Shown: piece by piece, positions 1 to 56,500 of the stretch
How the letters are laid out: each line of letters opens with the position of its first letter
How positions within the stretch are numbered: the stretch's first letter is position 1
Notes under the pieces: model-generated
Database searches by the model: none
Seen by the model: the letters and a program-made list of their open reading frames with translations, nothing else
What the model was told of the DNA's origin: nothing
Translations under genes and position numbers: made by a program
NCBI RefSeq assembly: GCF_003019035.1
Contig: NZ_CP027447.1
Reading direction: 5' to 3' (one strand)
Length of the DNA: 64,000 bases
Source of the DNA: Escherichia coli
GTDB lineage: Bacteria > Pseudomonadota > Gammaproteobacteria > Enterobacterales > Enterobacteriaceae

Positions 1-3000
1 CATTATTACTTCCGCGACTATCGACCCGGAACGCTTTTCGCGCCACTTTAATAATGCGCCGATTATCGAAGTCTCCGGTCGGACCTATCCGGTGGAAGTG
101 CGCTATCGCCCGATCGTTGAAGAAGCTGATGACACCGAGCGCGATCAGTTGCAGGCGATTTTTGACGCCGTAGACGAACTGAGCCAGGAAAGCCCTGGCG
201 ACATTCTGATCTTTATGAGCGGTGAGCGGGAAATTCGCGATACCGCCGATGCGCTGAACAAGCTAAATCTGCGGCATACCGAAATCTTGCCGCTTTATGC
301 GCGGCTTTCGAACAGCGAACAGAACCGCGTGTTCCAGTCGCACAGTGGACGGCGCATTGTGCTGGCGACCAACGTCGCGGAAACCTCGCTGACCGTACCG
401 GGTATTAAATACGTTATCGACCCCGGTACAGCGCGTATCAGCCGCTACAGCTATCGCACCAAAGTGCAGCGTTTGCCGATTGAACCCATTTCGCAGGCGT
501 CTGCCAATCAGCGTAAAGGCCGCTGTGGTCGTGTGTCCGAAGGGATCTGTATTCGTCTCTATTCCGAAGACGATTTCCTTTCGCGCCCGGAATTTACCGA
601 TCCGGAGATTCTGCGTACCAACCTGGCCTCGGTTATTTTGCAGATGACTGCGCTGGGGCTGGGCGATATCGCTGCGTTCCCGTTTGTTGAAGCACCGGAT
701 AAACGCAATATCCAGGATGGCGTGCGTCTGCTCGAAGAACTGGGCGCGATCACCACGGATGAACAGGCCAGCGCCTATAAACTGACGCCGCTCGGTCGCC
801 AGCTCTCGCAGTTGCCTGTCGACCCACGTCTGGCGCGTATGGTGCTGGAAGCGCAAAAACATGGCTGCGTGCGTGAGGCGATGATTATCACGTCCGCGCT
901 CTCCATTCAGGATCCGCGCGAGCGTCCGATGGATAAACAGCAGGCATCGGACGAAAAACATCGTCGCTTCCACGACAAAGAATCCGACTTCCTCGCGTTT
1001 GTAAATCTGTGGAATTATCTTGGCGAGCAGCAAAAGGCGCTTTCTTCCAACGCCTTCCGTCGCCTGTGTCGTACCGATTATCTCAACTATCTGCGCGTGC
1101 GCGAATGGCAGGATATCTACACCCAGTTGCGCCAGGTGGTGAAAGAACTTGGCATTCCGGTTAACAGCGAACCGGCGGAGTATCGTGAAATTCACATTGC
1201 GTTGCTGACGGGTTTACTTTCCCATATCGGCATGAAAGATGCCGATAAACAAGAATATACCGGCGCACGTAACGCGCGTTTCTCCATTTTCCCCGGTTCC
1301 GGCTTATTTAAAAAGCCGCCGAAATGGGTAATGGTGGCGGAACTGGTAGAAACCAGCCGCCTGTGGGGGCGCATTGCTGCGCGTATCGACCCGGAATGGG
1401 TAGAACCCGTTGCTCAGCATTTGATTAAACGCACCTACAGCGAACCGCACTGGGAACGGGCGCAGGGCGCGGTGATGGCAACGGAAAAAGTCACTGTTTA
1501 TGGTTTGCCGATTGTTGCTGCGCGCAAGGTCAACTACAGCCAGATCGATCCGGCGTTATGTCGTGAACTCTTTATTCGCCACGCTCTGGTGGAAGGTGAC
1601 TGGCAGACGCGTCACGCATTCTTCCGTGAAAACCTGAAACTGCGGGCCGAAGTGGAAGAGCTGGAACACAAATCACGTCGCCGCGATATTCTGGTTGATG
1701 ACGAAACGTTGTTTGAGTTCTACGACCAGCGCATCAGCCACGATGTAATCTCCGCTCGTCACTTCGACAGCTGGTGGAAAAAAGTCAGCCGCGAAACGCC
1801 TGATTTGCTCAACTTTGAAAAGAGCATGTTGATCAAAGAAGGGGCGGAAAAAATCAGCAAGCTGGATTATCCGAACTTCTGGCATCAGAGCAATCTCAAG
1901 CTGCGTTTGAGCTATCAGTTTGAGCCCGGCGCGGATGCTGACGGTGTGACTGTGCATATCCCGCTGCCGCTGCTTAATCAGGTAGAAGAGAGCGGGTTTG
2001 AATGGCAAATCCCCGGCCTGCGCCGCGAACTGGTGATTGCTCTGATTAAATCGTTGCCGAAACCGGTACGCCGTAATTTTGTACCTGCGCCAAACTATGC
2101 CGAAGCGTTTTTAGGCCGCGTCAAACCGCTGGAGTTACCGTTGCTCGACAGTCTTGAGCGCGAGTTACGGCGGATGACCGGTGTTACCGTTGACCGCGAA
2201 GACTGGCACTGGGATCAGGTGCCCGATCACCTGAAAATCACCTTCCGCGTGGTGGATGACAAAAACAAGAAGCTAAAAGAAGGGCGCTCTCTACAAGATC
2301 TGAAAGATGCGCTGAAAGGCAAAGTGCAGGAAACGCTGTCTGCGGTGGCGGATGACGGTATCGAGCAGAGCGGCTTACATATCTGGAGTTTTGGTCAGCT
2401 GCCGGAAAGCTACGAACAGAAGCGTGGTAACTACAAAGTGAAGGCGTGGCCGGCGCTGGTGGATGAACGCGACAGCGTGGCGATCAAACTGTTTGATAAT
2501 CCGCTGGAACAAAAGCAGGCAATGTGGAACGGTCTTCGCCGTCTACTGCTGCTGAATATTCCATCGCCGATCAAGTATTTGCATGAAAAGTTACCGAACA
2601 AAGCCAAGCTGGGGCTGTACTTTAACCCGTATGGCAAAGTGCTGGAGCTGATCGACGACTGTATCTCCTGCGGGGTGGATCAACTGATCGACGCCAATGG
2701 TGGCCCGGTCTGGACGGAAGAAGGCTTTGCTGCGCTGCATGAGAAAGTGCGTGCCGAACTGAACGACACGGTGGTGGATATTGCGAAGCAGGTCGAGCAA
2801 ATTCTTACGGCAGTGTTCAATATCAACAAACGTCTGAAAGGGCGGGTGGATATGACCATGGCGCTGGGGCTTTCTGACATTAAAGCGCAGATGGGCGGGC
2901 TGGTGTATCGCGGTTTTGTGACTGGTAACGGCTTCAAACGGTTGGGCGACACGCTGCGTTATTTGCAGGCGATTGAAAAACGACTGGAAAAACTGGCGGT

Positions 3001-3229
3001 TGATCCGCATCGTGACCGTGCTCAGATGCTGAAAGTCGAAAACGTCCAGCAGGCGTGGCAGCAATGGATCAACAAACTGCCGCCTGCACGTCGTGAGGAT
3101 GAAGACGTGAAAGAGATCCGCTGGATGATAGAAGAGCTGCGCGTCAGCTACTTCGCTCAACAACTTGGTACGCCTTATCCGATTTCGGATAAGCGTATTT
3201 TGCAGGCGATGGAGCAGATTAGCGGTTAA
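1..3229 (+). CDS. hrpA: ATP-dependent RNA helicase HrpA, C-terminal ~1045 codons; 5' end lies upstream of the window
   Basis: Open frame runs from the window edge to the stop at 3227-3229; translated sequence recognised as the HrpA C-terminal region; hairpin terminator follows. Confidence 0.9.
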   Translation, partial: IITSATIDPERFSRHFNNAPIIEVSGRTYPVEVRYRPIVEEADDTERDQLQAIFDAVDELSQESPGDILIFMSGEREIRDTADALNKLNLRHTEILPLYARLSNSEQNRVFQSHSGRRIVLATNVAETSLTVPGIKYVIDPGTARISRYSYRTKVQRLPIEPISQASANQRKGRCGRVSEGICIRLYSEDDFLSRPEFTDPEILRTNLASVILQMTALGLGDIAAFPFVEAPDKRNIQDGVRLLEELGAITTDEQASAYKLTPLGRQLSQLPVDPRLARMVLEAQKHGCVREAMIITSALSIQDPRERPMDKQQASDEKHRRFHDKESDFLAFVNLWNYLGEQQKALSSNAFRRLCRTDYLNYLRVREWQDIYTQLRQVVKELGIPVNSEPAEYREIHIALLTGLLSHIGMKDADKQEYTGARNARFSIFPGSGLFKKPPKWVMVAELVETSRLWGRIAARIDPEWVEPVAQHLIKRTYSEPHWERAQGAVMATEKVTVYGLPIVAARKVNYSQIDPALCRELFIRHALVEGDWQTRHAFFRENLKLRAEVEELEHKSRRRDILVDDETLFEFYDQRISHDVISARHFDSWWKKVSRETPDLLNFEKSMLIKEGAEKISKLDYPNFWHQSNLKLRLSYQFEPGADADGVTVHIPLPLLNQVEESGFEWQIPGLRRELVIALIKSLPKPVRRNFVPAPNYAEAFLGRVKPLELPLLDSLERELRRMTGVTVDREDWHWDQVPDHLKITFRVVDDKNKKLKEGRSLQDLKDALKGKVQETLSAVADDGIEQSGLHIWSFGQLPESYEQKRGNYKVKAWPALVDERDSVAIKLFDNPLEQKQAMWNGLRRLLLLNIPSPIKYLHEKLPNKAKLGLYFNPYGKVLELIDDCISCGVDQLIDANGGPVWTEEGFAALHEKVRAELNDTVVDIAKQVEQILTAVFNINKRLKGRVDMTMALGLSDIKAQMGGLVYRGFVTGNGFKRLGDTLRYLQAIEKRLEKLAVDPHRDRAQMLKVENVQQAWQQWINKLPPARREDEDVKEIRWMIEELRVSYFAQQLGTPYPISDKRILQAMEQISG

Positions 3230-3253
3230 CCCTGCTATTTGCCTGATAAATCT

Positions 3254-3287
3254 AAAACCCGGTAAGCATTTAGCGCCGGGTTTTTTA
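3254..3287 (+). terminator. Rho-independent terminator after hrpA
   Basis: Inverted repeat aaaacccgg...ccgggtttt followed by a T-run. Confidence 0.6.
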
Positions 3288-3500
3288 TTAATTCTAAAAC
3301 GGTAAGCGAAAAAATTCAGGAATTCAGAAAAATACAATTCTCTGCTGCAAGATGAATAATGTTTATCTACAGCATTTCCTTAAAAGATATGTCAGGCTTG
3401 CGGAGTGGCGGTTAAGGGAATACGACTTCCTCCTTTCAGAGTGCTCCGCTTCTCACTATTATCTCACGCAGTATTCTTAAGGGAACGATAAGGAGGAACC

Positions 3501-42803: not shown

Positions 42804-43623
42804 AAGGATAAATGGCGTTCTCTGTATTTATTCGCAATTATCTGTAGGACAAATATGGAGAGCTTGATGAGTCAGAGCTAAAACAGCAATTGATTAATAA
42901 ACATGTTGATTTATTCAAGAAAATGGATGTATTTTAAATATTGATTCTTAATATAACCTAATCAATAGATTATCACGTGAGAGCTGCACATTATTGGAGG
43001 GGCAGGGGAAAACACCATTTTGGGAACAATGCATCAGGTACTCTTACCACTGAAGCAAGATCATCCGGGCACCAGGTGGTGGTGCAGTGCTTTGGAAATG
43101 GTCCCCTCGGGGGAGTTGTCATTATTTTCTATGCTATTTGCTTATTATATTCATCAGGTGAATTTAATAAATTCCTAATTTGAAATATCCACTATTAAGC
43201 TAGTGTTTAACGACGTTAAGATGGCAATGTGCAGATCATGTTATCAGGGTGGGGCGGTAGCGTATATTCCTTATACAAACCATCATTCATTTCAATGATT
43301 GTTATTGAATTATTTATTGTTGTGAATAAAAAGACATTATGAATATTGGTTTGACTTTGCATATCAGGTTTTTTATTACTCGCTGTAATGTACGAGCCTG
43401 TCGTGAATAACGTCGAGAACCCATCCGTTGCGTTTGTGATTATTTTGTTGACTAAACAGACACCCGTTTCTCTGAAGTAAAATCCCAGACTAAATCATCA
43501 CATAACCATGACATTTTTCTGATATTCCCCGGTAACGCCAGATGTCGACTCGCTTATCTCATCCGCCCGACATGTTGTACATGCAATATGTGCGGATTAT
43601 TATTCATTTTCACGGAGGTTGCT

Positions 43624-45732
43624 ATGTCAACCGGATTACGTTTCACGCTGGAAGTGGACGGCCTGCCACCGGACGCGTTTGCGGTGGTTTCCTTTCATCT
43701 CACCCAGTCACTCTCTTCACTTTTTTCCCTTGACCTTTCTCTGGTCAGTCAGCAGTTTCTCTCCCTTGAATTTGCGCAGGTGCTGGACAAAATGGCCTAC
43801 CTGACGGTATGGCAGGGCGATGACGTACAGCGCCGGGTGAAAGGCGTGGTGACCTGGTTTGAACTCGGGGAGAACGACAAAAACCAGATGCTGTACAGCA
43901 TAAAGGTGCGCCCGCCGCTGTGGCGGGCAGGACTGCGTCAGAACTTCCGTATCTTCCAGAACGAGGACATCAGAAGCATCCTCGGCACCATACTGCAGGA
44001 AAATGACGTCACGGAGTGGAGTCCGCTGTTCAGCGAGCCGCATCCTTCCCGTGAGTTTTGTGTCCAGTACGGCGAAACCGATTACGATTTCCTGTGCCGG
44101 ATGGCGGCGGAGGAAGGCATCTTCTTTTATGAGGAGCACGCGCAAAAAAGTACCGACCAGAGCCTGGTCCTGTGCGACACCGTGCGTTATCTGCCGGAGT
44201 CCTTTGAGATCCCCTGGAATCCGAACACCCGTACCGAGGTGAGCACCCTATGCATCAGCCAGTTCCTCTACAGCGCACAAATCCGCCCATCTTCCGTGGT
44301 GACCAAAGACTACACCTTTAAACGACCCGGCTGGGCAGGGCGTTTTGATCAGGAAGGCCAGCACCAGGATTACCAGCGCACACAGTATGAAGTGTATGAC
44401 TACCCCGGACGTTTCAAGGGTGCCCACGGGCAGAACTTTGCCTGCTGGCAGATGGATGGCTGGCGAAACAACGCAGAAGTGGCGCGCGGAACAAGCCGTT
44501 CGCCGGAGATATGGCCGGGACGGCGAATTGCGCTGACGGGGCATCCGCAGGCGAACCTGAACCGGGAATGGCAGGTGGTGGCAAGTGAACTGCACGGCGA
44601 GCAGCCGCAGGCGGTGCCGGGACGCAGTGGTTCAGGTACCACGCTGAATAACCACTTTGCGGTAATACCGGCAGACAGAACATGGCGGCCACAGCCGTTG
44701 CTGAAACCGCTGGTGGACGGCCCGCAGAGCGCCGTCGTGACGGGACCGGCAGGAGAAGAAATCTTCTGTGATGAACATGGCCGCGTGCGGGTGAAATTTA
44801 ACTGGGACCGTTATAACCCGTCAAACCAGGACAGTTCATGCTGGATCCGTGTGGCACAGGCGTGGGCAGGCACCGGGTTTGGTAACCTGGCGATACCGCG
44901 TGTGGGTCAGGAGGTCATTGTGGACTTCCTCAACGGCGATCCGGACCAGCCGATTATTATGGGGCGCACCTACCACCAGGAAAACCGCACCCCCGGCAGC
45001 CTGCCGGGAACAAAGACGCAAATGACCATTCGTTCAAAAACCTATAAGGGCAGCGGGTTTAATGAACTGAAGTTTGACGATGCGACAGGGAAAGAACAGG
45101 TCTACATCCACGCGCAGAAGAACATGAACACCGAGGTGCTGAATAACCGCACCACGGATGTGATAAACAACCATGCTGAGACCATCGGCAACAATCAGGT
45201 GATTGCGGTTACCAACAATCAGATACAGACGGTGGGCGTTAACCAGATAGAGACGGTGGGCAGTAACCAGATCATTAAAGTGGGCTCTGTTCAGGTGGAA
45301 ACGATTGGACTTGTTCGTGCGCTGACTGTGGGCGTGGCGTATCAGACGACGGTAGGTGGCATTATGAACACCTCGGTGGCCCTGATGCAGTCCTCGCAGA
45401 TCGGTTTGCATAAATCGTTGATGGTCGGGCTGGGTTATGACGTCAAAGTCGGAAATAACGTTACCTTCACCGTTGGTAAAACGAAAAAGGATGATACCGG
45501 GCAGACCGCGATTTACTCCGCCGGTGAGCATCTGGAACTCTGCTGTGGTAAGGCAAGGCTGGTGCTGACTAAGGACGGACAAATTTTTCTCAACGGCACA
45601 AAAATTCATTTGCAGGGTAAGGAGCAGGTTAATGGTGACTCACTGTTGATTAACTGGAACTGTGCAGCCTCGAAATCCCCACCGAAGACCCCTGATGAAA
45701 AGCAGGATACGCCGGATATGAGAGAGTACTGA
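43624..45732 (+). CDS. vgrG: Type VI secretion spike protein VgrG (orphan, no other T6SS core genes in window)
   Basis: ORF 43588-45732; start at MSTGLRFTLEVDGL with SD ggagg upstream; gp27/gp5-like N-terminus and C-terminal beta-helical repeats (VIAVTNNQIQTVGVNQIETVGSNQIIKVG). Confidence 0.9.
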   Translation: MSTGLRFTLEVDGLPPDAFAVVSFHLTQSLSSLFSLDLSLVSQQFLSLEFAQVLDKMAYLTVWQGDDVQRRVKGVVTWFELGENDKNQMLYSIKVRPPLWRAGLRQNFRIFQNEDIRSILGTILQENDVTEWSPLFSEPHPSREFCVQYGETDYDFLCRMAAEEGIFFYEEHAQKSTDQSLVLCDTVRYLPESFEIPWNPNTRTEVSTLCISQFLYSAQIRPSSVVTKDYTFKRPGWAGRFDQEGQHQDYQRTQYEVYDYPGRFKGAHGQNFACWQMDGWRNNAEVARGTSRSPEIWPGRRIALTGHPQANLNREWQVVASELHGEQPQAVPGRSGSGTTLNNHFAVIPADRTWRPQPLLKPLVDGPQSAVVTGPAGEEIFCDEHGRVRVKFNWDRYNPSNQDSSCWIRVAQAWAGTGFGNLAIPRVGQEVIVDFLNGDPDQPIIMGRTYHQENRTPGSLPGTKTQMTIRSKTYKGSGFNELKFDDATGKEQVYIHAQKNMNTEVLNNRTTDVINNHAETIGNNQVIAVTNNQIQTVGVNQIETVGSNQIIKVGSVQVETIGLVRALTVGVAYQTTVGGIMNTSVALMQSSQIGLHKSLMVGLGYDVKVGNNVTFTVGKTKKDDTGQTAIYSAGEHLELCCGKARLVLTKDGQIFLNGTKIHLQGKEQVNGDSLLINWNCAASKSPPKTPDEKQDTPDMREY

Positions 45733-45815: not shown

Positions 45816-47106
45816 CAGGGAAAGATCATCAGAAGTACACTTTTTGTACTAAACAATTCGCATTTTATGTTTAAAAATTGAGATATTCCTCATTACCTGA
45901 AGCTGTTTTTTATTGCTTATACATGATCAAATACTCCTTACATAATTAAGGAGAACAAAATGGAACTTAAAAAATTGATGGAGCATATTTCTATTATCCC
46001 CGATTACAGACAAGCCTGGAAAGTGGAACATAAATTATCGGACATTCTACTGTTGACTATTTGTGCCGTTATTTCTGGTGCAGAAGGCTGGGAAGATATA
46101 GAGGATTTTGGGGAAACACATCTCGATTTTTTGAAGCAATATGGTGATTTTGAAAATGGTATTCCTGTTCACGATACCATTGCCAGAGTTGTATCCTGTA
46201 TCAGTCCTGCAAAATTTCACGAGTGCTTTATTAACTGGATGCGTGACTGCCATTCTTCAGATGATAAAGGCGTCATTGCAATTGATGGAAAAACGCTCCG
46301 GCACTCTTATGACAAGAGTCGCCGCAGGGGAGCGATTCATGTCATTAGTGCGTTCTCAACAATGCACAGTCTGGTCATCGGACAGATCAAGACGGATGAG
46401 AAATCCAATGAGATTACAGCTATCCCAGAACTTCTTAACATGCTGGATATTAAAGGAAAAATCATCACAACTGATGCGATGGGTTGCCAGAAAGATATTG
46501 CAGAGAAGATACAAAAACAGGGAGGTGATTATTTATTCGCTGTAAAAGGAAATCAGGGGCGGCTTAATAAAGCCTTTGAGGAAAAATTTCCACTGAAAGA
46601 ATTAAATAATCCAGAGCATGACAGTTACGCAATGAGTGAAAAGAGTCACGGCAGAGAAGAAATCCGTCTTCACATTGTTTGCGATGTCCCTGATGAACTT
46701 ATTGATTTCACGTTTGAATGGAAAGGTCTGAAGAAATTATGCGTGGCAGTCTCCTTTCGGTCAATAATAGCAGAACAAAAGAAAGAGCCAGAAATGACGG
46801 TCAGATATTATATCAGTTCTGCTGATTTAACCGCAGAGAAGTTCGCCACAGCAATCCGAAACCACTGGCACGTGGAGAATAAGCTGCACTGGCGTCTGGA
46901 CGTGGTAATGAATGAAGACGACTGCAAAATAAGAAGAGGAAACGCCGCAGAATTATTTTCAGGGATACGGCACATCGCTATTAATATTTTAACGAATGAT
47001 AAGGTATTCAAGGCAGGGTTAAGACGTAAGATGCGAAAAGCTGCCATGGACAGAAACTATCTCGCGTCAGTCCTTGCGGGGAGCGGGCTTTCGTAATCTT
47101 TCCCTG
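45816..47106 (+). mobile_element. H-repeat (ISAs1-family) element, copy A, 1291 bp
   Basis: Terminal inverted repeats cagggaaaga (left) and tctttccctg (right); encodes a 378-aa transposase; nearly identical to copies at 50594-51884 and 58348-59638. Confidence 0.85.
45960..47096 (+). CDS. ISAs1-family transposase (H repeat-associated protein, YdcC/YhhI-like)
   Basis: 378-aa ORF with SD aaggag; three near-identical copies in the window. Confidence 0.88.
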
Positions 47107-48889
47107 GCTGCTGGAGTTCACGCGCGACCGCCTGCACCGGGAGACGGTGCGCAGCTTCGGCAGCATGGCAGGCAGTAATGCCGCATACGAACTGACCAGC
47201 ACATACACCCCCGCAGGCCAGTTACAGAGCCAGCACCTGAACAGCCTGGTATATGACCGTGACTACGGGTGGAGTGACAACGGCGACCTGGTGCGCATCA
47301 GCGGCCCGCGACAGACGCGGGAATACGGCTACAGCGCCACGGGCAGGCTGGAGAGTGTGCGCACCCTCGCACCGGACCTGGACATCCGCATCCCGTATGC
47401 CACGGACCCGGCGGGCAACCGGCTGCCGGACCCGGAGCTGCACCCGGACAGTACACTCACAGTGTGGCCGGATAACCGAATCACCGAAGACGCGCACTAC
47501 CTGTACCGTTACGATGAATACGGCAGGCTGACGGAGAAGACGGACCGCATCCCGGCGGGTGTGATACGGACGGACGACGAGCGGACCCACCACTACCGCT
47601 ACGACAGCCAGCACCGCCTGGTGTTCCACACGCGGATACAGCATGGCGAGCCACTGGTCGAGAGCCGCTACCTCTACGACCCGCTGGGACGGCGAATGGC
47701 AAAACGGGTCTGGCGGCGGGAGCGTGACCTGACGGGGTGGATGTCGCTGTCGCGTAAACCGGAGGAGACATGGTACGGGTGGGACGGCGACAGGCTGACG
47801 ACGGTGCAGACTGACACCACACGTATCCAGACGGTCTACCAGCCGGGGAGCTTCACGCCGCTCATCCGTATCGAGACAGAGAACGGCGAACGGGAGAAAA
47901 TGCAACGCCGCAGCCTGGCGGAGAAGTTACAGTCGGAAGGGAGTGAGGACGGTCACGGTGTGGTGTTCCCGGCTGAGCTGGTGAGGATGCTGGACAGGCT
48001 GGAGGAAGAAATCCGGGCAGACCGCGTGAGCAGTGAAAGCCGGGCGTGGCTTGCGCAGTGCGGGCTGACGGTGGAGCAACTGGCCAGACAGGTGGAGCCG
48101 GAATACACACCGGCGCGAAAAGTTCATTTTTACCACTGCGACCACCGGGGCCTGCCGCTGGCGCTCATCAGCGAAGACGGCAATACGGTGTGGAGCGGGG
48201 AGTATGATGAATGGGGCAACCAGCTTAATGAGGAGAACCCGCATCATGTGTATCAGCCATACCGCCTGCCGGGGCAGCAGTATGATGAGGAGTCGGGGCT
48301 GTACTATAACCGCAACCGGTACTATGATCCGTTGCAGGGGAGGTATATTACCCAGGATCCGATTGGGCCGGTGGGGGGGTGGAATCCCTATAGTTATGTG
48401 CTTATTAATCCAGCCCAGTTTATTGACCCAACAGGTTTAACTCAAGAGGACAATTGGACCTATGGTGAGGTAGGTAATAGCTGTGTTACGAGTCAACGCG
48501 ATTTTACTCCCCCGCCCGGACTTGCGGATATGAAAGCCAGCATTGGCGCTGCCTGCTCAAGAAACAATGCTTCCAGAAACTGCCACCCCGTAGATGGTAG
48601 TAATGCTTCTGCACCATCGGATAAAGCCGCATGGGAAAATATTCAAAATGCGACAAATGGTAAAGATTTATCTGGTGGTGGAAATATGTTTTGTGTAGGA
48701 AATGAGGACTGTGCGGTTGTTCATAGCTGTCGTGAAATAGTTAATGCTCGACACCCGGCAGGACGAGTGCGTGAACGTGTAACTCCGTTAACAACGTCAG
48801 GAACAGCAACGCTCAATGGAACAACAGTTTACTTTTATAATGATCCCCGGAATGGCAATTGTCCTGCTCACGAATATATTCCTCAATAA
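47107..48889 (+). pseudogene. rhsE: Orphan Rhs 3' fragment (rhsE-like): distal core repeats plus a divergent C-terminal toxin tip; no native start codon
   Basis: Begins abruptly at the right end of H-repeat copy A; 47107-48355 is collinear, without indels, with 55994-57242 of the intact rhs (about 93% amino-acid identity); DPIGP motif at 48356-48370; unique C-terminal about 173 codons. Confidence 0.8.
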
Positions 48890-48939
48890 AGAAAAGTGGC
48901 CAGACTAAGCTCTAGCCACATTTTTTGGAGATCCTTTTC

Positions 48940-49563
48940 ATGAAAAGGTTTTTTATAACATGTTGCGTTATGACATTATTTTTATTTGTTAAATGTAAAG
49001 CAGCGTGTGTAACTTCCTTATATGAGGTTCAGCAATCGCTCTTTACATACATTTATTTGATTAGACAAGACCCTGTTCATTTTGATTCATATATTAAGAA
49101 TGTGCATAACGAATTAAAAATATTCCATGATATTGATAAAGCAATGAATATAGCCTCAGATATGGTCAAAATTATTGATATAAAGACCCGTTTATCATTT
49201 AATAATGATTTATATATATTACAAGGGGAACGACAGTATGCAATAGTTAAGAGTGAAGGGGAAAGTAGTCAATTAAAATCATCAGCATTTATCATATCTA
49301 ATTACCCACTATTTAAAAACAAAGTTCTGTTAATTTTATCCGCTACTAGTCCCGTTCAGTTGGTTATATTGTCTTTTGATCAATGTCTTAATGTGGAGGT
49401 GTTATTTGATTCAATGTCTCCAGTTTTCGCTAAGTATAGAGAAGATATTAGTGCAACATTACCATTATGGAAGGTTATTTTGACAAAAAATGATATAGAA
49501 TTATATGAGTACCATAGAACAAATCCATACTCACTTAACAAATTATTGAGCATGTCAAAATAA
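48940..49563 (+). CDS. Putative immunity protein for the orphan Rhs-CT (AT-rich, signal-peptide-like N-terminus)
   Basis: ORF 48925-49563 (TTG) or ATG at 48940 (MKRFFITCCVMTLFLFVKCKAAC...); directly downstream of the toxin tip; low GC. Confidence 0.6.
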   Translation: MKRFFITCCVMTLFLFVKCKAACVTSLYEVQQSLFTYIYLIRQDPVHFDSYIKNVHNELKIFHDIDKAMNIASDMVKIIDIKTRLSFNNDLYILQGERQYAIVKSEGESSQLKSSAFIISNYPLFKNKVLLILSATSPVQLVILSFDQCLNVEVLFDSMSPVFAKYREDISATLPLWKVILTKNDIELYEYHRTNPYSLNKLLSMSK

Positions 49564-49748
49564 CGGTCAAGTATTCAACGTTGTAATATTATTCCTTTTG
49601 CTGAGTGTCTCGAACGGCTAAAGTTGACGTAAAATGCCACGTTTTGTGGGCAAACCGAATCGGTTAAAAAGCATGGTCCGGGAAAAGCTTAACATCAGCG
49701 CTATCGGTGCCAAATGTGCAGCAGGCCTTTCCAGCCTGATTACCAGGG

Positions 49749-50004
49749 CAGGGCGGGATCGTGAATATTGTGATGCATATCACATGAACTCCTGGTTTTA
49801 ACTTATTATTTCGGTTAAAATTTAACCACTGAAATCATTAGGATTCGAGCAAAGGGACGGCATATGGATATTCAAAATTTACTGGATTATATTTCTATAA
49901 TTCCTGATTATCGTCAGCAAGGGAAAATAAGGCATAAATTGTCAGATATTTTATTGCTCACTATATGTGCTATTATTGCCGGTTCTGATGAATGGGAGGA
50001 TATT
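49749..50004 (+). mobile_element. Truncated H-repeat variant (fragment D): left end plus first about 47 codons of transposase
   Basis: IR-like cagggcgggatcgtga at about 49749; ORF start 49864 ([48 protein letters not shown]) interrupted by the next element. Confidence 0.65.
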
Positions 50005-50593
50005 CAGGGCAAGATCATGAAAATCGTGATGTAAATCACAATTTTCAACCTGGCTTTAACTCCTTCAGGAGATTAAAATTTAACCTATGGAATAACTAAA
50101 AAGATAAAAAAGGACGCCAGATGAGTATTCAAAGTTTGCTTGATTATATTTCAGTGTTCCCTGATATACGACAACAAGGAAAGGTTAAACATAAATTATC
50201 TGATATTTTGTTTCTCACCGTATGTGCAGTAATTGCAGGTGCCGATGAGTGGCAGGAAATTGAAGATTTTGGACATGAAAGACTGGAATGGCTAAAGAAA
50301 TATGGTGATTTTGATAATGGCATTCCGGTCGATGACACCATTGCACGCGTTGTGAGTAACATTGACAGTTTGGCCTTTGAAAAGATGTTTATTGAATGGA
50401 TGCAGGAGTGCCATGAAATCACTGATGGTGAAATTATAGCAATAGATGGAAAGACCATAAGAGGCTCCTTTGATAAGGGAAAAAGGAAAGGAGCAATCCA
50501 TATGGTGAGTGCATTCTCGACTGAAAATGGTGTTGTACTGGGGCAGGTGAAAACGGAAGCCAAAAGTAATGAGATTACAGCCATTCCAGAGTT
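50005..50593 (+). mobile_element. Truncated H-repeat variant (fragment E) inserted into fragment D and itself cut by copy B
   Basis: Left end cagggcaagatca at 50005; transposase N-terminal 158 codons (ORF 50121..., diverged from copies A-C) ending where the copy B left IR starts at 50594. Confidence 0.7.
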
Positions 50594-51884
50594 CAGGGAA
50601 AGATCATCAGAAGTACACTTTTTGTACTAAACAATTCGCATTTTATGTTTAAAAATTGAGATATTCCTCATTACCTGAAGCTGTTTTTTATTGCTTATAC
50701 ATGATCAAATACTCCTTACATAATTAAGGAGAACAAAATGGAACTTAAAAAATTGATGGAACATATTTCTATTATCCCCGATTACAGACAAGCCTGGAAA
50801 GTGGAACATAAATTATCGGATATTCTACTGTTGACTATTTGTGCCGTTATTTCGGGTGCAGAAGGCTGGGAAGATATAGAGGATTTTGGGGAAACACATC
50901 TCGATTTTTTGAAGCAATATGGTGATTTTGATAATGGTATTCCTGTTCACGATACCATTGCCAGAGTTGTATCCTGTATCAGTCCTGCAAAATTTCACGA
51001 GTGCTTTATTAACTGGATGCGTGACTGCCATTCTTCAGATGATAAAGACGTCATCGCAATTGATGGAAAAACACTCCGGCATTCTTATGACAAGAGTCGC
51101 CGCAGGGGAGCGATTCATGTCATTAGTGCGTTCTCAACAATGCACAGTCTGGTCATCGGACAGATCAGGACGGATGAGAAATCCAATGAGATCACAGCTA
51201 TCCCTGAACTTCTTAACATGCTGGATATTAAAGGAAAAATTATCACAACTGATGCAATGGGTTGCCAGAAAGATATTGCAGAGAAGATACAAAAACAGGG
51301 CGGTGATTATTTATTCGCTGTAAAAGGAAATCAGGGTCGGCTAAATAAAGCCTTTGAGGAAAAATTCCCACTGAAAGAATTAAATAATCCAGAACATGAC
51401 AGTTACGCAATGAGTGAAAAGAGTCACGGCAGAGAAGAAATCCGTCTTCACATTGTTTGCGATGTCCCTGATGAACTTATTGATTTCACGTTTGAATGGA
51501 AAGGTCTGAAGAAATTATGCGTGGCAGTCTCCTTTCGGTCAATAATAGCAGAACAAAAGAAAGAGCCAGAAATGACGGTCAGATATTATATCAGTTCTGC
51601 TGATTTAACCGCAGAGAAGTTCGCCACAGCAATCCGAAACCACTGGCACGTGGAGAATAAGCTGCACTGGCGTCTGGACGTGGTAATGAATGAAGACGAC
51701 TGCAAAATAAGAAGAGGAAACGCCGCAGAATTATTTTCAGGGATACGGCACATCGCTATTAATATTTTGACGAATGATAAGGTATTCAAGGCAGGGTTAA
51801 GACGTAAGATGCGAAAAGCTGCCATGGACAGAAACTATCTCGCGTCAGTCCTTGCGGGGAGCGGGCTTTCGTAATCTTGCCCTG
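50594..51884 (+). mobile_element. H-repeat (ISAs1-family) element, copy B, 1291 bp
   Basis: Same IRs and length as copy A. Confidence 0.85.
50738..51874 (+). CDS. ISAs1-family transposase (H repeat-associated protein)
   Basis: 378-aa ORF, a few substitutions relative to copy A. Confidence 0.88.
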
Positions 51885-51896
51885 CTTTGTAATGGT

Positions 51897-52079
51897 ATGG
51901 CAGGAGGATATGAATTTGCAGTAAGTAAATTTGGTCAGTCGGCCTATGATGCCGCACAGGAAAAAGCATTAAATAACTATATGGAATTTGAAATGTTAGA
52001 TTTATTACAAAGCATGGGAGAGAATGTCAATCCAGATGAATATAAGCAGGCGCATGATAGAGTTGTTAATCCAAATTGA
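51897..52079 (+). CDS. Small ORF (60 aa) starting just outside the copy B right end; possibly the 3' remnant of a toxin tip
   Basis: ORF 51852-52079 begins inside the IS right end; first ATG outside the IS at 51897 (MAGGYEFAVSKFG...); stop overlaps the next gene. Confidence 0.35.
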   Translation: MAGGYEFAVSKFGQSAYDAAQEKALNNYMEFEMLDLLQSMGENVNPDEYKQAHDRVVNPN

Positions 52080-52093
52080 ATGCAGAGGGGAGT

Positions 52094-52657
52094 ATGTTAT
52101 TAAAACTGATAATGTTATTTTCAATATTTTTTATCCCGTTTTTGGCAGGTTGCAGTATGTTTGATGATGTTTTTGAGAAAAACTACTCATTGAGTTCTGT
52201 CGCCAGTTTTCCAGATGACGTTGATGAATTAAAAGAAATATGGTTTTTTTGTGAAAGATGTTTAAGTGATGAGCAGTGCGAAAATCATGACATTAAACAA
52301 TGTAGAGATGTAACTATTCCCGGTAGAGATGAAGCATTAAGTAAAGCTGTAGGCAGAGCCAATGTCGAAGCTGTTTACTTTCTTGTTGATGTGGCAAAAA
52401 CTGATGTCAATGGTATTACAGGTAAATATAAGGAAACACCATTAATTATTGCTGCATATTATGGAACTCAAGCACATCAGGATATAGCTGAATTTTTGCT
52501 ATTGCATGGGGCAGATATTAATAAAACTTACCCAGCCATTGGGCGAAATCCTCTAGGTGTCGCCAGATGGAAGCATAATGTCGATTTCGTTAATTTTCTA
52601 CTGAAGCATGGTGCTGAACCAGCAGTACATATGGGGTCGATTGAGAATAAAGAGTGA
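52094..52657 (+). CDS. Ankyrin-repeat lipoprotein (candidate immunity protein)
   Basis: ORF 52076-52657; ATG at 52094 preceded by gagggga; lipobox FLAGC; ankyrin-like repeats (TPLIIAAYYGTQAHQDIAEFLLLHGADIN, NPLGVARWKHNVDFVNFLLKHGAEP). Confidence 0.7.
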   Translation: MLLKLIMLFSIFFIPFLAGCSMFDDVFEKNYSLSSVASFPDDVDELKEIWFFCERCLSDEQCENHDIKQCRDVTIPGRDEALSKAVGRANVEAVYFLVDVAKTDVNGITGKYKETPLIIAAYYGTQAHQDIAEFLLLHGADINKTYPAIGRNPLGVARWKHNVDFVNFLLKHGAEPAVHMGSIENKE

Positions 52658-53100
52658 GATTTAACAAAAATGCAATTCATGCTCTCGCCTTGGGTGACGG
52701 TATTGATACTGCTTTTAAGTGTTCAGGAAAAATGGAAAGTGGTAAACCCTTAAAATCTTCGGGCAAATGGGATTACTCTGTTGGTGGGACAAATGGTGCC
52801 TTTCTTTATCTTAAAGACTATTCAAATATTTTGACGGCTGGCCACACAGGAAATCTGGCAGTTACTTTTCTTGGAAGTTACAATGCTCAATATTCAATAA
52901 ACGGAAACTCTCTGGATGTAGTTGTAACAAATTCTTCAACGATACAATCAGCGACACATCCCCCAATCCTGGAGTATACAAAATGGTGGCAGGATAATAT
53001 TGGTAATCCTTTGGATAGAAAATTTCAAAAAGGTCCCACGTCCCCAAAAACACAAACCATAAATTTACACTTTGATTTGTCATGTGCGTGCAAAAAATGA
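52654..53100 (+). CDS. Hypothetical protein, translationally coupled to flanking genes
   Basis: GTG at 52654 overlaps the upstream stop; alternative ATG at 52732; stop overlaps the downstream ATG (atga) at 53097. Confidence 0.5.
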   Translation: MRFNKNAIHALALGDGIDTAFKCSGKMESGKPLKSSGKWDYSVGGTNGAFLYLKDYSNILTAGHTGNLAVTFLGSYNAQYSINGNSLDVVVTNSSTIQSATHPPILEYTKWWQDNIGNPLDRKFQKGPTSPKTQTINLHFDLSCACKK

Positions 53101-53480: not shown

Positions 53481-53549
53481 TCATTTATATTAAACAATGA
53501 AAGTATTGATCGTGAGCAGATTAAATATATAAGAAATTAAGGAGATACC

Positions 53550-56500
53550 ATGAGCGGAAAACCCGCGGCACGCCAGGGTGATGCCACGCTGAAAGGCGGT
53601 CCGATAGTCCAGGGGTCAGCGGGGGTGCTGATAGGCGCGCCCACCGGCGTGGCGTGCTCGGTGTGTCCGGGCGGGATGACTTCGGGCAACCCGGTAAATC
53701 CGCTGCTGGGGGCGAAGGTGCTGCCCGGCGAGACGGACCTTGCCCTGCCCGGCCCGCTGCCGTTCATTCTCTCCCGCACCTACAGCAGCTACCGGACGAG
53801 GACGCCTGCCCCGGTGGGCGTTTTCGGCCCCGGCTGGAAAGCGCCTTCGGATATCCGCTTACAGCTACGTGATGACGCACTGATACTCAACGACAACGGC
53901 GGGCGGAGCATTCACTTTGAGCCGCTGCTGCCGGGGGAGGCGGTGTACAGCCGCAGCGAGTCAATGTGGCTGGTGCGCGGTGGTAAGGCAGCGCAGCCGG
54001 ACGGCCACACGCTGGCGCGACTGTGGGGGGCGCTGCCGCCGGATATCCGGTTAAGCCCGCATCTTTACCTGGCGACCAACAGCGCACAGGGGCCGTGGTG
54101 GATACTCGGCTGGTCAGAGCGGGTGCCGGGTACTGAGGACGTACTGCCAGCGCCGCTGCCGCCGTACCGGGTGCTTACCGGGCTGGCGGACCGCTTCGGG
54201 CAGACGCTGACGTACCGGCGTGAGGCCGCCGGTGACCTGGCCGGGGAAATCACCGGCGTGACGGACGGTGCCGGGCGGAAGTTCCGTCTGGTGCTGACCA
54301 CGCAGGCGCAGCGTGCGGAAGAGGCCCGCACCTCTTCGCTATCTTCTTCTGACCGTTCCCGCCCTCTCTCAGCCTCAGCGTTCCCCGACACACTGCCCGG
54401 TACGGAATACGGCCCCGACAGGGGCATCCGTCTTTCGGCGGTGTGGCTGATGCACGACCCGGCATACCCGGAAAGCCTGCCCGGTGCGCCACTGGCGCGG
54501 TACACGTATACGGAAGCCGGTGAACTGCTGGCGGTATATGACCGCAGCAATACGCAGGTGCGCGCTTTCACGTATGACGCGCAGCACCCGGGCCGGATGG
54601 TGGCGCACCGTTACGCGGGAAGGCCGGAGATGCGCTACCGCTACGACGATACGGGGCGGGTGGTGGAGCAACTGAACCCGGCAGGGTTAAGCTACCGCTA
54701 TCTTTATGAGCAGGACCGCATCACCATCACGGACAGCCTGAACCGGCGAGAGGTGCTGCATACAGAAGGCGGGGCCGGGCTGAAGCGGGTGGTGAAAAAA
54801 GAACTGGCGGACGGCAGCGTCACGCACAGCGGGTATGACGCGGCAGGAAGGCTCACGGCACAGACGGACGCGGCGGGACGGCAGACAGAGTACGGTCTGA
54901 ATGTGGTGTCAGGCGATATCACGGACATCACCACGCCGGACGGGCGGGAGACGAAATTTTACTATAACGACGGGAACCAGGTGACGGCAGTGGTGTCCCC
55001 GGACGGGCTGGAGAGCCGCCGGGCGTATGATGAGCGGGACAGGCTGGTAACGGAGACATCGCGCAGTGGGGACGTCATCCGGTATGCTTATGATAATCCG
55101 CACAGTGAATTACCGGCCACGACAACAGATGCGACGGGCAGCACCCGGCAGATGACCTGGAGCCGCTACGGGCAGTTGCTGGCGTTCACCGACTGCTCGG
55201 GCTACCAGACCCGCTATGAATACGACCGCTTCGGCCAGATGACGGCGGTCCACCGCGAGGAAGGCATCAGCCTTTACCGCCGCTATGACAACCGTGGCCG
55301 GTTAACCTCGGTGAAAGACGCACAGGCCCGTGAAACGCAGTATGAGTACAACGCCGCAGGCGACCTGACTGCCGTTATCACCCCGGATGGCAACCGGAGT
55401 GAGACACAGTACGATGGGTGGGGAAAGGCCATCAGCACCACGCAGGGCGGGCTGACGCGCAGTATGGAGTACGATGCTGCCGGACGTATCACCACGCTGA
55501 CTAACGAGAACGGCAGCCACAGCGACTTTAGTTACGATGCGCTGGACCGCCTGATACAGCAGGGCGGCTTTGACGGGCGGACGCAACGTTATCATTATGA
55601 CCTGACCGGAAAACTCACGCAGAGTGAAGATGAGGGGCTTGTCATCCTCTGGTACTACGATGAATCGGACCGTATTACTCACCGCACGGTAAACGGTGAA
55701 CCGGCAGAACAGTGGCGGTATGACGGCCACGGCTGGCTGAGAGAAATCAGCCACCTGAGCGAAGGCCACCGTGTTGCCGTCCACTATGGCTATGATAATA
55801 AAGGCCGCCTGACCAGTGAGCGCCAGACGGTGCATCACCCGGAGACGGGAGAGCTGCTCTGGCAGCATGAGACCGGACATGCGTACAACGAACAGGGGCT
55901 GGCAAACCGCGTCACGCCGGACAGTCTGCCGCCGGTGGAGTGGCTGACCTATGGTAGCGGTTATCTGGCAGGCATGAAGCTGGGCGGGACGCCGCTGCTG
56001 GAGTTCACGCGCGACCGCCTGCACCGTGAGACGGTGCGCAGCTTCGGCAGCATGGCAGGCAGTAATGCCGCATACGAACTGACCAGCACATACACCCCTG
56101 CAGGCCAGTTACAGAGTCAGCACCTGAACAGCCTGGTGTATGACCGTGACTACGGGTGGAATGACAACGGAGACCTGGTGCGCATCAGCGGCCCGCGACA
56201 GACGCGGGAATACGGCTACAGCGCCACGGGCAGGCTGGAGAGTGTGCGCACCCTCGCACCGGACCTGGACATCCGCATCCCGTATGCCACGGACCCGGCG
56301 GGCAACCGGCTGCCGGACCCGGAGCTGCACCCGGACAGTACACTCACAGTGTGGCCGGATAACCGCATCGCGGAGGATGCGCACTATGTCTACCGCCACG
56401 ATGAATACGGCAGGCTGACGGAGAAGACGGACCGCATCCCGGCGGGTGTGATACGGACGGACGACGAGCGGACCCACCACTACCACTACGACAGCCAGCA

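Follow-up and report, generated by a model that had tools for sequence, protein, structure and literature searches.

The window analysed here is a stretch of 64,000 nucleotides of Escherichia coli DNA (NCBI RefSeq assembly GCF_003019035.1, contig NZ_CP027447.1), and within it, beside the gene for a type VI secretion system (T6SS) spike protein, vgrG, lies the 3' part of an rhs gene that ends in a cysteine-rich C-terminal toxin tip and is followed by a gene for a 207-aa immunity protein. On balance we favour the view that the tip is a SleB-like toxin that cleaves the glycan strands of peptidoglycan, and it very probably acts outside the cytoplasm. An earlier reading of this DNA from its letters alone (the sequence-only reading) had already placed the action of the toxin outside the cytoplasm, and this placement is now supported by the exported-type N-termini of the immunity proteins, by paired losses of cysteines in the toxin family, by a SleB-like structural model and by relatives of the toxin that carry a PG_binding_1 domain or Sec/lipoprotein signals.

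The tip ends a plus-strand Rhs open reading frame (ORF) at 47147-48889 that has a GTG start at 47147. The translation of 48371-48886 begins directly 3' of DPIGP and gives 172 aa. DPIGP, which the sequence-only reading took as the start of the tip, is the first of two motifs that end Rhs cores, but the true demarcation is the second, PxxxxDPxGL (48407-48439), so that the toxin proper comprises 149 aa, TQEDNW...EYIPQ, which together with the stop codon occupy 48440-48889 (plus strand). The boundary is thereby shifted, but the cysteine content claimed for the tip is retained: the seven cysteines of the 172 aa are exactly those listed earlier, and all of them fall within the last 149 aa, compared with two in the preceding 431 residues of Rhs core. 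At a cysteine rate of 1.15%, the binomial probability of finding at least seven in 149 aa is 0.002.

The tip matches nothing in Pfam, NCBIfam or PADLOC except the tail of the Rhs core, and searches of the PDB sequences, with the single sequence or with a 62-sequence profile, gave chance matches only (cytochrome oxidase and picornavirus VP4). Apart from fragments from E. coli, the six tip matches of a word-indexed protein search were an orphan tip of Salmonella with 89% identity and a metagenomic protein with 47%; the same kind of search gave four matches to the immunity protein. The family was found only by an exhaustive hidden Markov model search, in which a three-sequence toxin profile was compared with 1.84 billion representative proteins, giving 83 clusters at E<=1e-3, 37 of them even at E<=1e-30. 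Conservation was assessed in the 62 members with full coverage, which were aligned, and none of the 62 matches any Pfam toxin family. G9 and S34 are invariant in these members and E10 is present in 61; the positions conserved in at least 90% are E10, P25, L28, C39, C48, A64, W65, N67, I68, A71, G74, D76, C85, C91, R113, L117, F132 and Y133. Besides its cysteines, the window domain has the invariant G9-E10 of a YGE motif, S34, D76 and R113.

The cysteines follow a paired pattern. Six of them (C39, C48, C85, C91, C97 and C141) are kept in 81-98% of the 62 members, while C15 is found in just five. Losses occur jointly, of C97 with C141 in eight sequences, of C39 with C48 in one and of C85 with C91 in one, and additional cysteines likewise come in twos, one at position 6 being matched by one at 50, and one at 100 by one in the C-terminal tail; the number per member runs from 4 to 13, with a median of 9. 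Such paired loss and gain is the signature expected for three disulfides, which we infer to be C39-C48, C85-C91 and C97-C141.

The immunity gene runs on the plus strand from an ATG at 48940 to a stop ending at 49563, and a GGAG motif at 48927-48930 (plus strand), 9 nt upstream of the ATG, reads as its Shine-Dalgarno sequence. Its product of 207 aa is indeed the protein with a hydrophobic N-terminus that had been described from the letters alone, and by hydropathy the segment resembles a signal peptide: MKR is followed by FFITCCVMTLFLFV (mean Kyte-Doolittle 2.66 over 14 aa) and then by KCKA/AC, where the slash marks the putative cleavage site. The predicted Sec signal peptide, MKRFFITCCVMTLFLFVKCKA, is encoded by 48940-49002 on the plus strand, with cleavage expected after CKA on the grounds of hydropathy and conservation. 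The PGAP annotation starts the protein later (197 aa); the Salmonella homologues retain an MKxFFI start, with a divergent hydrophobic core, a CKA/xC site and a highly conserved mature part. In Salmonella, the gene after the tip encodes a 205-aa homologue that is 68% identical to the window immunity protein (68-71% identity with Salmonella). The immunity homologues number about 25 and come from E. coli, from Salmonella and from metagenomes of soil or water; all have a charged n-region and a hydrophobic h-region of at least 12 residues (Kyte-Doolittle 2.25-3.1), several have lipoboxes or AxA-type sites, and across the set the N-termini diverge and the mature part is conserved. We considered whether the window protein is a lipoprotein and rejected this, as none of its cysteines is preceded by a canonical lipobox (FITC, ITCC, FVKC, KAAC).

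The pairing of the two genes extends well beyond E. coli. An immunity homologue stands directly downstream on the same strand in 26 of the 28 loci that are not of the extracellular contractile injection system (eCIS) type and have room for one, and both exceptions are disrupted toxin genes, so the co-occurrence that the sequence-only reading had suggested looking for in other genomes is found. A full-length metagenomic Rhs protein (P0015), for example, is followed by a 251-aa protein with a signal/lipobox N-terminus that aligns to the window immunity protein with E = 3e-10. Two eCIS-type loci have no immunity homologue. The immunity protein itself has no match in Pfam, NCBIfam, PADLOC or the PDB sequences and belongs to an un-annotated family; its AlphaFold2 model (pLDDT 84) combines a helical bundle in the N-terminal half with a beta-meander in the C-terminal half, has low confidence only in residues 1-20, and finds no convincing structural relative.

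The toxin domain is at or near the C-terminus in all cases, and it follows three kinds of N-terminal carrier. In about ten members it follows an Rhs/YD core with DPxGL. Sixteen of the 62 carry an N-terminal eCIS_core (PF13699), which the Rhs-borne window copy does not have, and in one eCIS_core protein (P0031) a PG_binding_1 domain lies directly N-terminal to the toxin domain. Other members consist of a Sec/lipoprotein signal, the toxin domain and then a C-terminal domain of about 110 aa, which may be a binding module. This C-terminal region is conserved in P0047, P0056, P0067, P0068 and P0069, with the motif ...LARFT..xxHRF...GW.QA(Y/F)FW..., and has no Pfam match. On one metagenomic contig (JGI 3300081718; L008 6001-10388), three consecutive eCIS_core cargo genes lie in an eCIS cluster with Pvc16_N, an AAA ATPase and CIS_tube, and the first of the three bears the toxin domain, with no immunity homologue there. 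A scan of genome contigs found the domain in two metagenome-assembled genomes only, from Acidobacteriota and Planctomycetota, one with an eCIS-type gene and one with a toxin gene split by a transposase. In the Planctomycetota genome (L021 3749-6162), what is apparently an inserted mobile element, with a 467-aa ORF read from the other strand, cuts the toxin gene in two, and no immunity homologue follows downstream.

A function for the toxin is suggested by its predicted fold. The AlphaFold model built from the 62-sequence alignment (pLDDT 92.3, pTM 0.87) has three helices followed by a small sheet, with YGE in helix 1, and its best structural match is SleB, a peptidoglycan lytic transglycosylase. 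The statement that the tip is not recognisable as a known toxin family holds for its sequence; its predicted fold resembles SleB. The structural matches are enriched for peptidoglycan lytic enzymes, including SleB twice, SpoIID, SleC and many AFDB 'cell wall hydrolases', and a Foldseek search of AFDB50 returned the E. coli protein itself and then about 13 'cell wall hydrolase / SleB / CwlJ' entries among the top 50, all of them weak (E 0.4-9). The apparent likeness to the spore cortex-lytic enzymes SleB/CwlJ and to the phage 'cell wall hydrolases' of PF07486 lies in an N-terminal helix with Y-x-E and, colinear with it, a helix, a DxxGG strand and a C-terminal aromatic strand; SleB, however, does not have the three disulfides, and the window toxin is about 30 residues longer, with loops stapled by cysteines.

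A SleB-family profile was made from SleB homologues together with ten divergent Hydrolase_2 proteins of phages; within it, the Glu of Y-x-E never varies, whereas the second Glu, of 'RGE', does. In SleB, the Glu of the YGE motif is the catalytic one (Glu157 in the B. cereus enzyme). To act as a lytic transglycosylase, SleB requires a catalytic glutamate (PMC12331253). A forced, low-stringency hhalign alignment of the toxin and SleB families, which is non-significant, is colinear and pairs YGE with YGE, the AAW helix with a W-containing helix, DxSGGGNxMC with DPTxGAxYY and GxTxYFY with GxHxFYK.

Several results weigh against a SleB-like exported-toxin module. Pfam Hydrolase_2 (PF07486) matches neither the query nor any of the 62 members, even at E<=0.1, and the profile search of the PDB sequences misses SleB. 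Comparison of the toxin family with the profile of SleB and phage Hydrolase_2 proteins by hhalign gave a probability below 1% and P = 0.17, with global mode failing, and the comparison with SleB alone was likewise not significant; a protein search with SleB as the query had returned close relatives only, of at least 77% identity, and so little diversity for a profile. The call of a signal peptide on the immunity protein, for its part, rests on hydropathy and conservation only. Because hhalign was not significant, we do not claim homology to SleB, and the relationship is presented as a moderately supported resemblance of predicted fold and motif, not as proven homology.

Alternatively, the tip may be a toxin of the envelope or periplasm with another target, such as lipid II, the membrane, a lipoprotein or another polysaccharide, and its likeness to SleB would then be coincidental. 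An exported immunity protein and a disulfide pattern speak to the compartment and not to the substrate, the link to SleB is non-significant in sequence and moderate in structure, and the structural alignment leaves about 65 residues of the toxin domain uncovered. We nevertheless consider such a target unlikely, since the structural matches are enriched for peptidoglycan lytic enzymes, the invariant YGE coincides in the forced alignment with the motif that bears the invariant Glu of the SleB relatives, and one relative is fused to a peptidoglycan-binding domain.

If the tip is indeed a peptidoglycan-cleaving toxin, an intact locus would work as follows. A 1408-aa Rhs protein would enclose the 149-aa C-terminal toxin, which would be released after PxxxxDPxGL and fired by the T6SS into a neighbouring cell. 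In the periplasm of the target, the toxin would behave as a SleB/CwlJ-like lytic transglycosylase or muramidase, with Glu10 of YGE as the candidate catalytic acid that cuts the glycan strands and with its fold presumably held by the three disulfides, which could form only outside the cytoplasm. The 207-aa protein, exported via its predicted Sec signal peptide, would neutralise toxin from sister cells in the periplasm.

The copy of the locus in the window is no longer intact. It is an E. coli rhs locus beside vgrG, flanked by yncH and yddH, and strain SCU-301 is 99.6% identical to it across 13 kb. The vgrG ORF (43588-45732, plus strand) is uninterrupted, and its homologue carries the annotation VgrG in strains 88-3493, TB06051 and YZMc3-1; its product is the delivery partner of the rhs gene that lies 3' of it. 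Between the two lies an ISAs1-family (H-repeat) element at 45816-47106 (plus strand), with a transposase ORF at 45960-47096 (annotated ISAs1/ISEc1). The 3' remnant of the Rhs core follows at 47107-48439 (plus strand), is open from the GTG and ends in the demarcation motif; the TIGR03696 Rhs_assc_core model gives a weak match at its last residues. In a blastn comparison with TB06051, the window matches as far as 17 bp inside rhs, continues as insertion sequence (IS) and then resumes in rhs (L047 position 5737), showing that the element stands in place of the 5' 2427 bp of the gene. The remnant shares 97.6% identity with the intact gene of TB06051 that is annotated 'RHS element core protein', and what is left of the main rhs gene adjoining vgrG is its 3' 1.78 kb. 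The tip had been called an orphan, a term that fits only in part: the gene has lost its 5' end but is not a displaced cassette.

In TB06051 and YZMc3-1, vgrG is intact, as is a 4227-bp rhs with this tip, and the immunity gene is present; these strains have a full-length Rhs protein able to load onto VgrG/PAAR, which the window does not encode. With the first 2.4 kb of rhs taken out by ISAs1, the window toxin has lost its route to loading and delivery. Of the locus, probably the immunity gene alone now works, and it may still protect against strains with an intact locus. The tip-immunity pair occurs in only 11 of 5426 complete E. coli genomes. The GC content falls stepwise from the core (63-68%) through the tip (44-49%) to the immunity gene (28-31%). 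A spacer of 50 bp (48890-48939) separates the toxin stop from the immunity ATG, and within it, between the stop and the Shine-Dalgarno motif, an imperfect palindrome with a 9-bp stem and T-runs on both strands (48896-48919) was flagged on the minus strand by a terminator-like scan; it could be a terminator, an attenuator or an RNA processing site.

With the 5' end of rhs that is needed for loading onto VgrG gone, the window copy might have been reduced further still, to a decaying and unexpressed tip and downstream ORF. The region is littered with IS fragments, its promoter-like sites are no commoner than in shuffled sequence, and other strains (88-3493 and F9792) carry versions of the locus with a frameshifted rhs or a truncated vgrG. 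Yet such decay is distinctly improbable, as both ORFs are intact and at least 99.2% identical in all 11 E. coli genomes, and the immunity ORF retains its Shine-Dalgarno motif and is conserved in Salmonella at 68-71% identity; moreover, it would concern the window copy alone and not the nature of the module.

Mobile elements are also evident around the module. The full ISAs1 copy at 45816-47106 has a nearly identical counterpart at 50591-51884 in direct orientation, and the tip-immunity module lies between them; the debris further includes two truncated ISAs1 transposase fragments and an IS1 remnant (49864-50630 and 49634-49801). A second rhs 5' end at 53549-54000, which matches the beginning of the intact TB06051 rhs at 93% identity, implies that the window has at least two tandem rhs genes. 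Right after the second ISAs1 copy, at 51852-52657, there is a decapitated toxin-immunity module made up of a 75-aa tip remnant and, after it, an ankyrin-repeat protein whose lipobox reads FLAGC. Both resemble a Salmonella pair, at 97% identity for the ankyrin protein and at 93% over 27 aa for the tip remnant; the Salmonella toxin has a faint match to the phospholipase A2 family PF09056, and in Salmonella this ankyrin-type pair adjoins the same SleB-like tip. A 148-aa ORF at 52654-53100 shares 4 bp with the ankyrin gene, at the stop of the latter, and is annotated 'hypothetical protein' in the corresponding region of SCU-301 (L001 16282-16686).

The characterised Rhs tips of E. coli and Salmonella are mostly cytoplasmic nucleases, and those of E. 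coli mostly have cytoplasmic immunity proteins. The window module has in common with the classical E. coli Rhs/RhsI modules the YD-repeat core, PxxxxDPxGL, the drop in GC from core to tip to immunity gene, the small adjacent immunity gene, the linkage to vgrG and the ISAs1 (H-repeat) elements; unlike in those modules, its immunity protein is predicted to be exported. That the tip is nevertheless a cytoplasmic toxin such as a nuclease, with cysteines that bind metal or are incidental and an immunity protein that faces the cytoplasm from an N-in membrane anchor, which a hydropathy-based signal call would accommodate, is very improbable, since no nuclease or cytoplasmic toxin family is matched in Pfam, NCBIfam, PADLOC or the PDB, cysteines are lost pairwise and not as metal-site sets, several immunity homologues show lipoboxes or AxA-type sites, as is usual for export signals that are cleaved, and some members of the toxin family themselves carry Sec/lipoprotein signals. 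The two findings that the sequence-only reading would have counted against an extracytoplasmic toxin, homology of the tip to a cytoplasmic toxin family and an immunity protein with no signal peptide, were thus not made, the signal-like N-terminus being judged by hydropathy.

A wider proposal, which we put forward tentatively and as rather doubtful, is that the tip belongs to an un-annotated superfamily of disulfide-stapled, SleB-like, glycan-cleaving toxins common to T6SS Rhs proteins, eCIS cargo and Sec-exported lipoproteins, and that oxidative folding is the switch for the activity of these toxins. In the reducing cytoplasm of its producer the toxin would be inert, and it would become active only once the periplasmic Dsb system of the target or the producer oxidised it. 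Such gating would call for an immunity gene with the Rhs versions, which run the risk of fire from sister cells, and for none with the eCIS versions; the absence of immunity homologues at the eCIS loci would fit a toxin that does no harm under the reducing conditions of a cytoplasm.

The closest described parallel is T6EC3 of Acinetobacter rudis, with its immunity protein T6IC3, a PAAR-fused T6SS effector that has no Pfam annotation and whose predicted structure matches SleB (PDB 4F55) (Geller et al. 2024, Mol Syst Biol, PMC11148199). The toxicity of T6EC3, which belongs to cluster 275 of that study, is confined to the periplasm, is relieved by an immunity protein with a natural periplasmic signal and disappears with the substitution E108Q, near the start of the toxin domain (PMC11148199). 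Like T6EC3, the window toxin is C-terminal, linked to a T6SS, without Pfam annotation and paired with an immunity protein that has a signal-like N-terminus, and the resemblance of its predicted fold to SleB is moderately supported. The concept of a SleB-fold T6SS effector with periplasmic immunity is thus not new. However, T6EC3 is fused to PAAR, whereas the window family is borne by Rhs, eCIS or Sec-exported proteins and is cysteine-rich; as no PAAR protein is found among the matches (0 of the 83 family clusters), the window family would be a lineage of its own, and the two are probably separate sequence families, T6EC3 having been compared by its description only.

The T6SS muramidases Tge1-3, VgrG3 and the pesticin-like effectors cleave glycan strands in the periplasm and are countered by exported immunity proteins of the Tgi type. 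If our assignment is right, the window module would share with them the strategy of a periplasmic glycan cleaver coupled to an exported immunity protein; by none of the searches is the window toxin a Tge or lysozyme-type effector.

For E. coli, the module adds a probable cell-wall-degrading tip with periplasmic immunity to the repertoire of Rhs toxins, and it offers an annotation for the 'hypothetical protein' 3' of this rhs tip, namely that of its immunity gene. More generally, it brings to light a nameless domain of 83 clusters, for which there is no Pfam or NCBIfam model and whose immunity family is likewise un-annotated, that has been reused by Rhs/T6SS proteins, eCIS cargo and secreted lipoproteins, and that could represent a second lineage, independent of T6EC3, of antibacterial effectors with a SleB fold.

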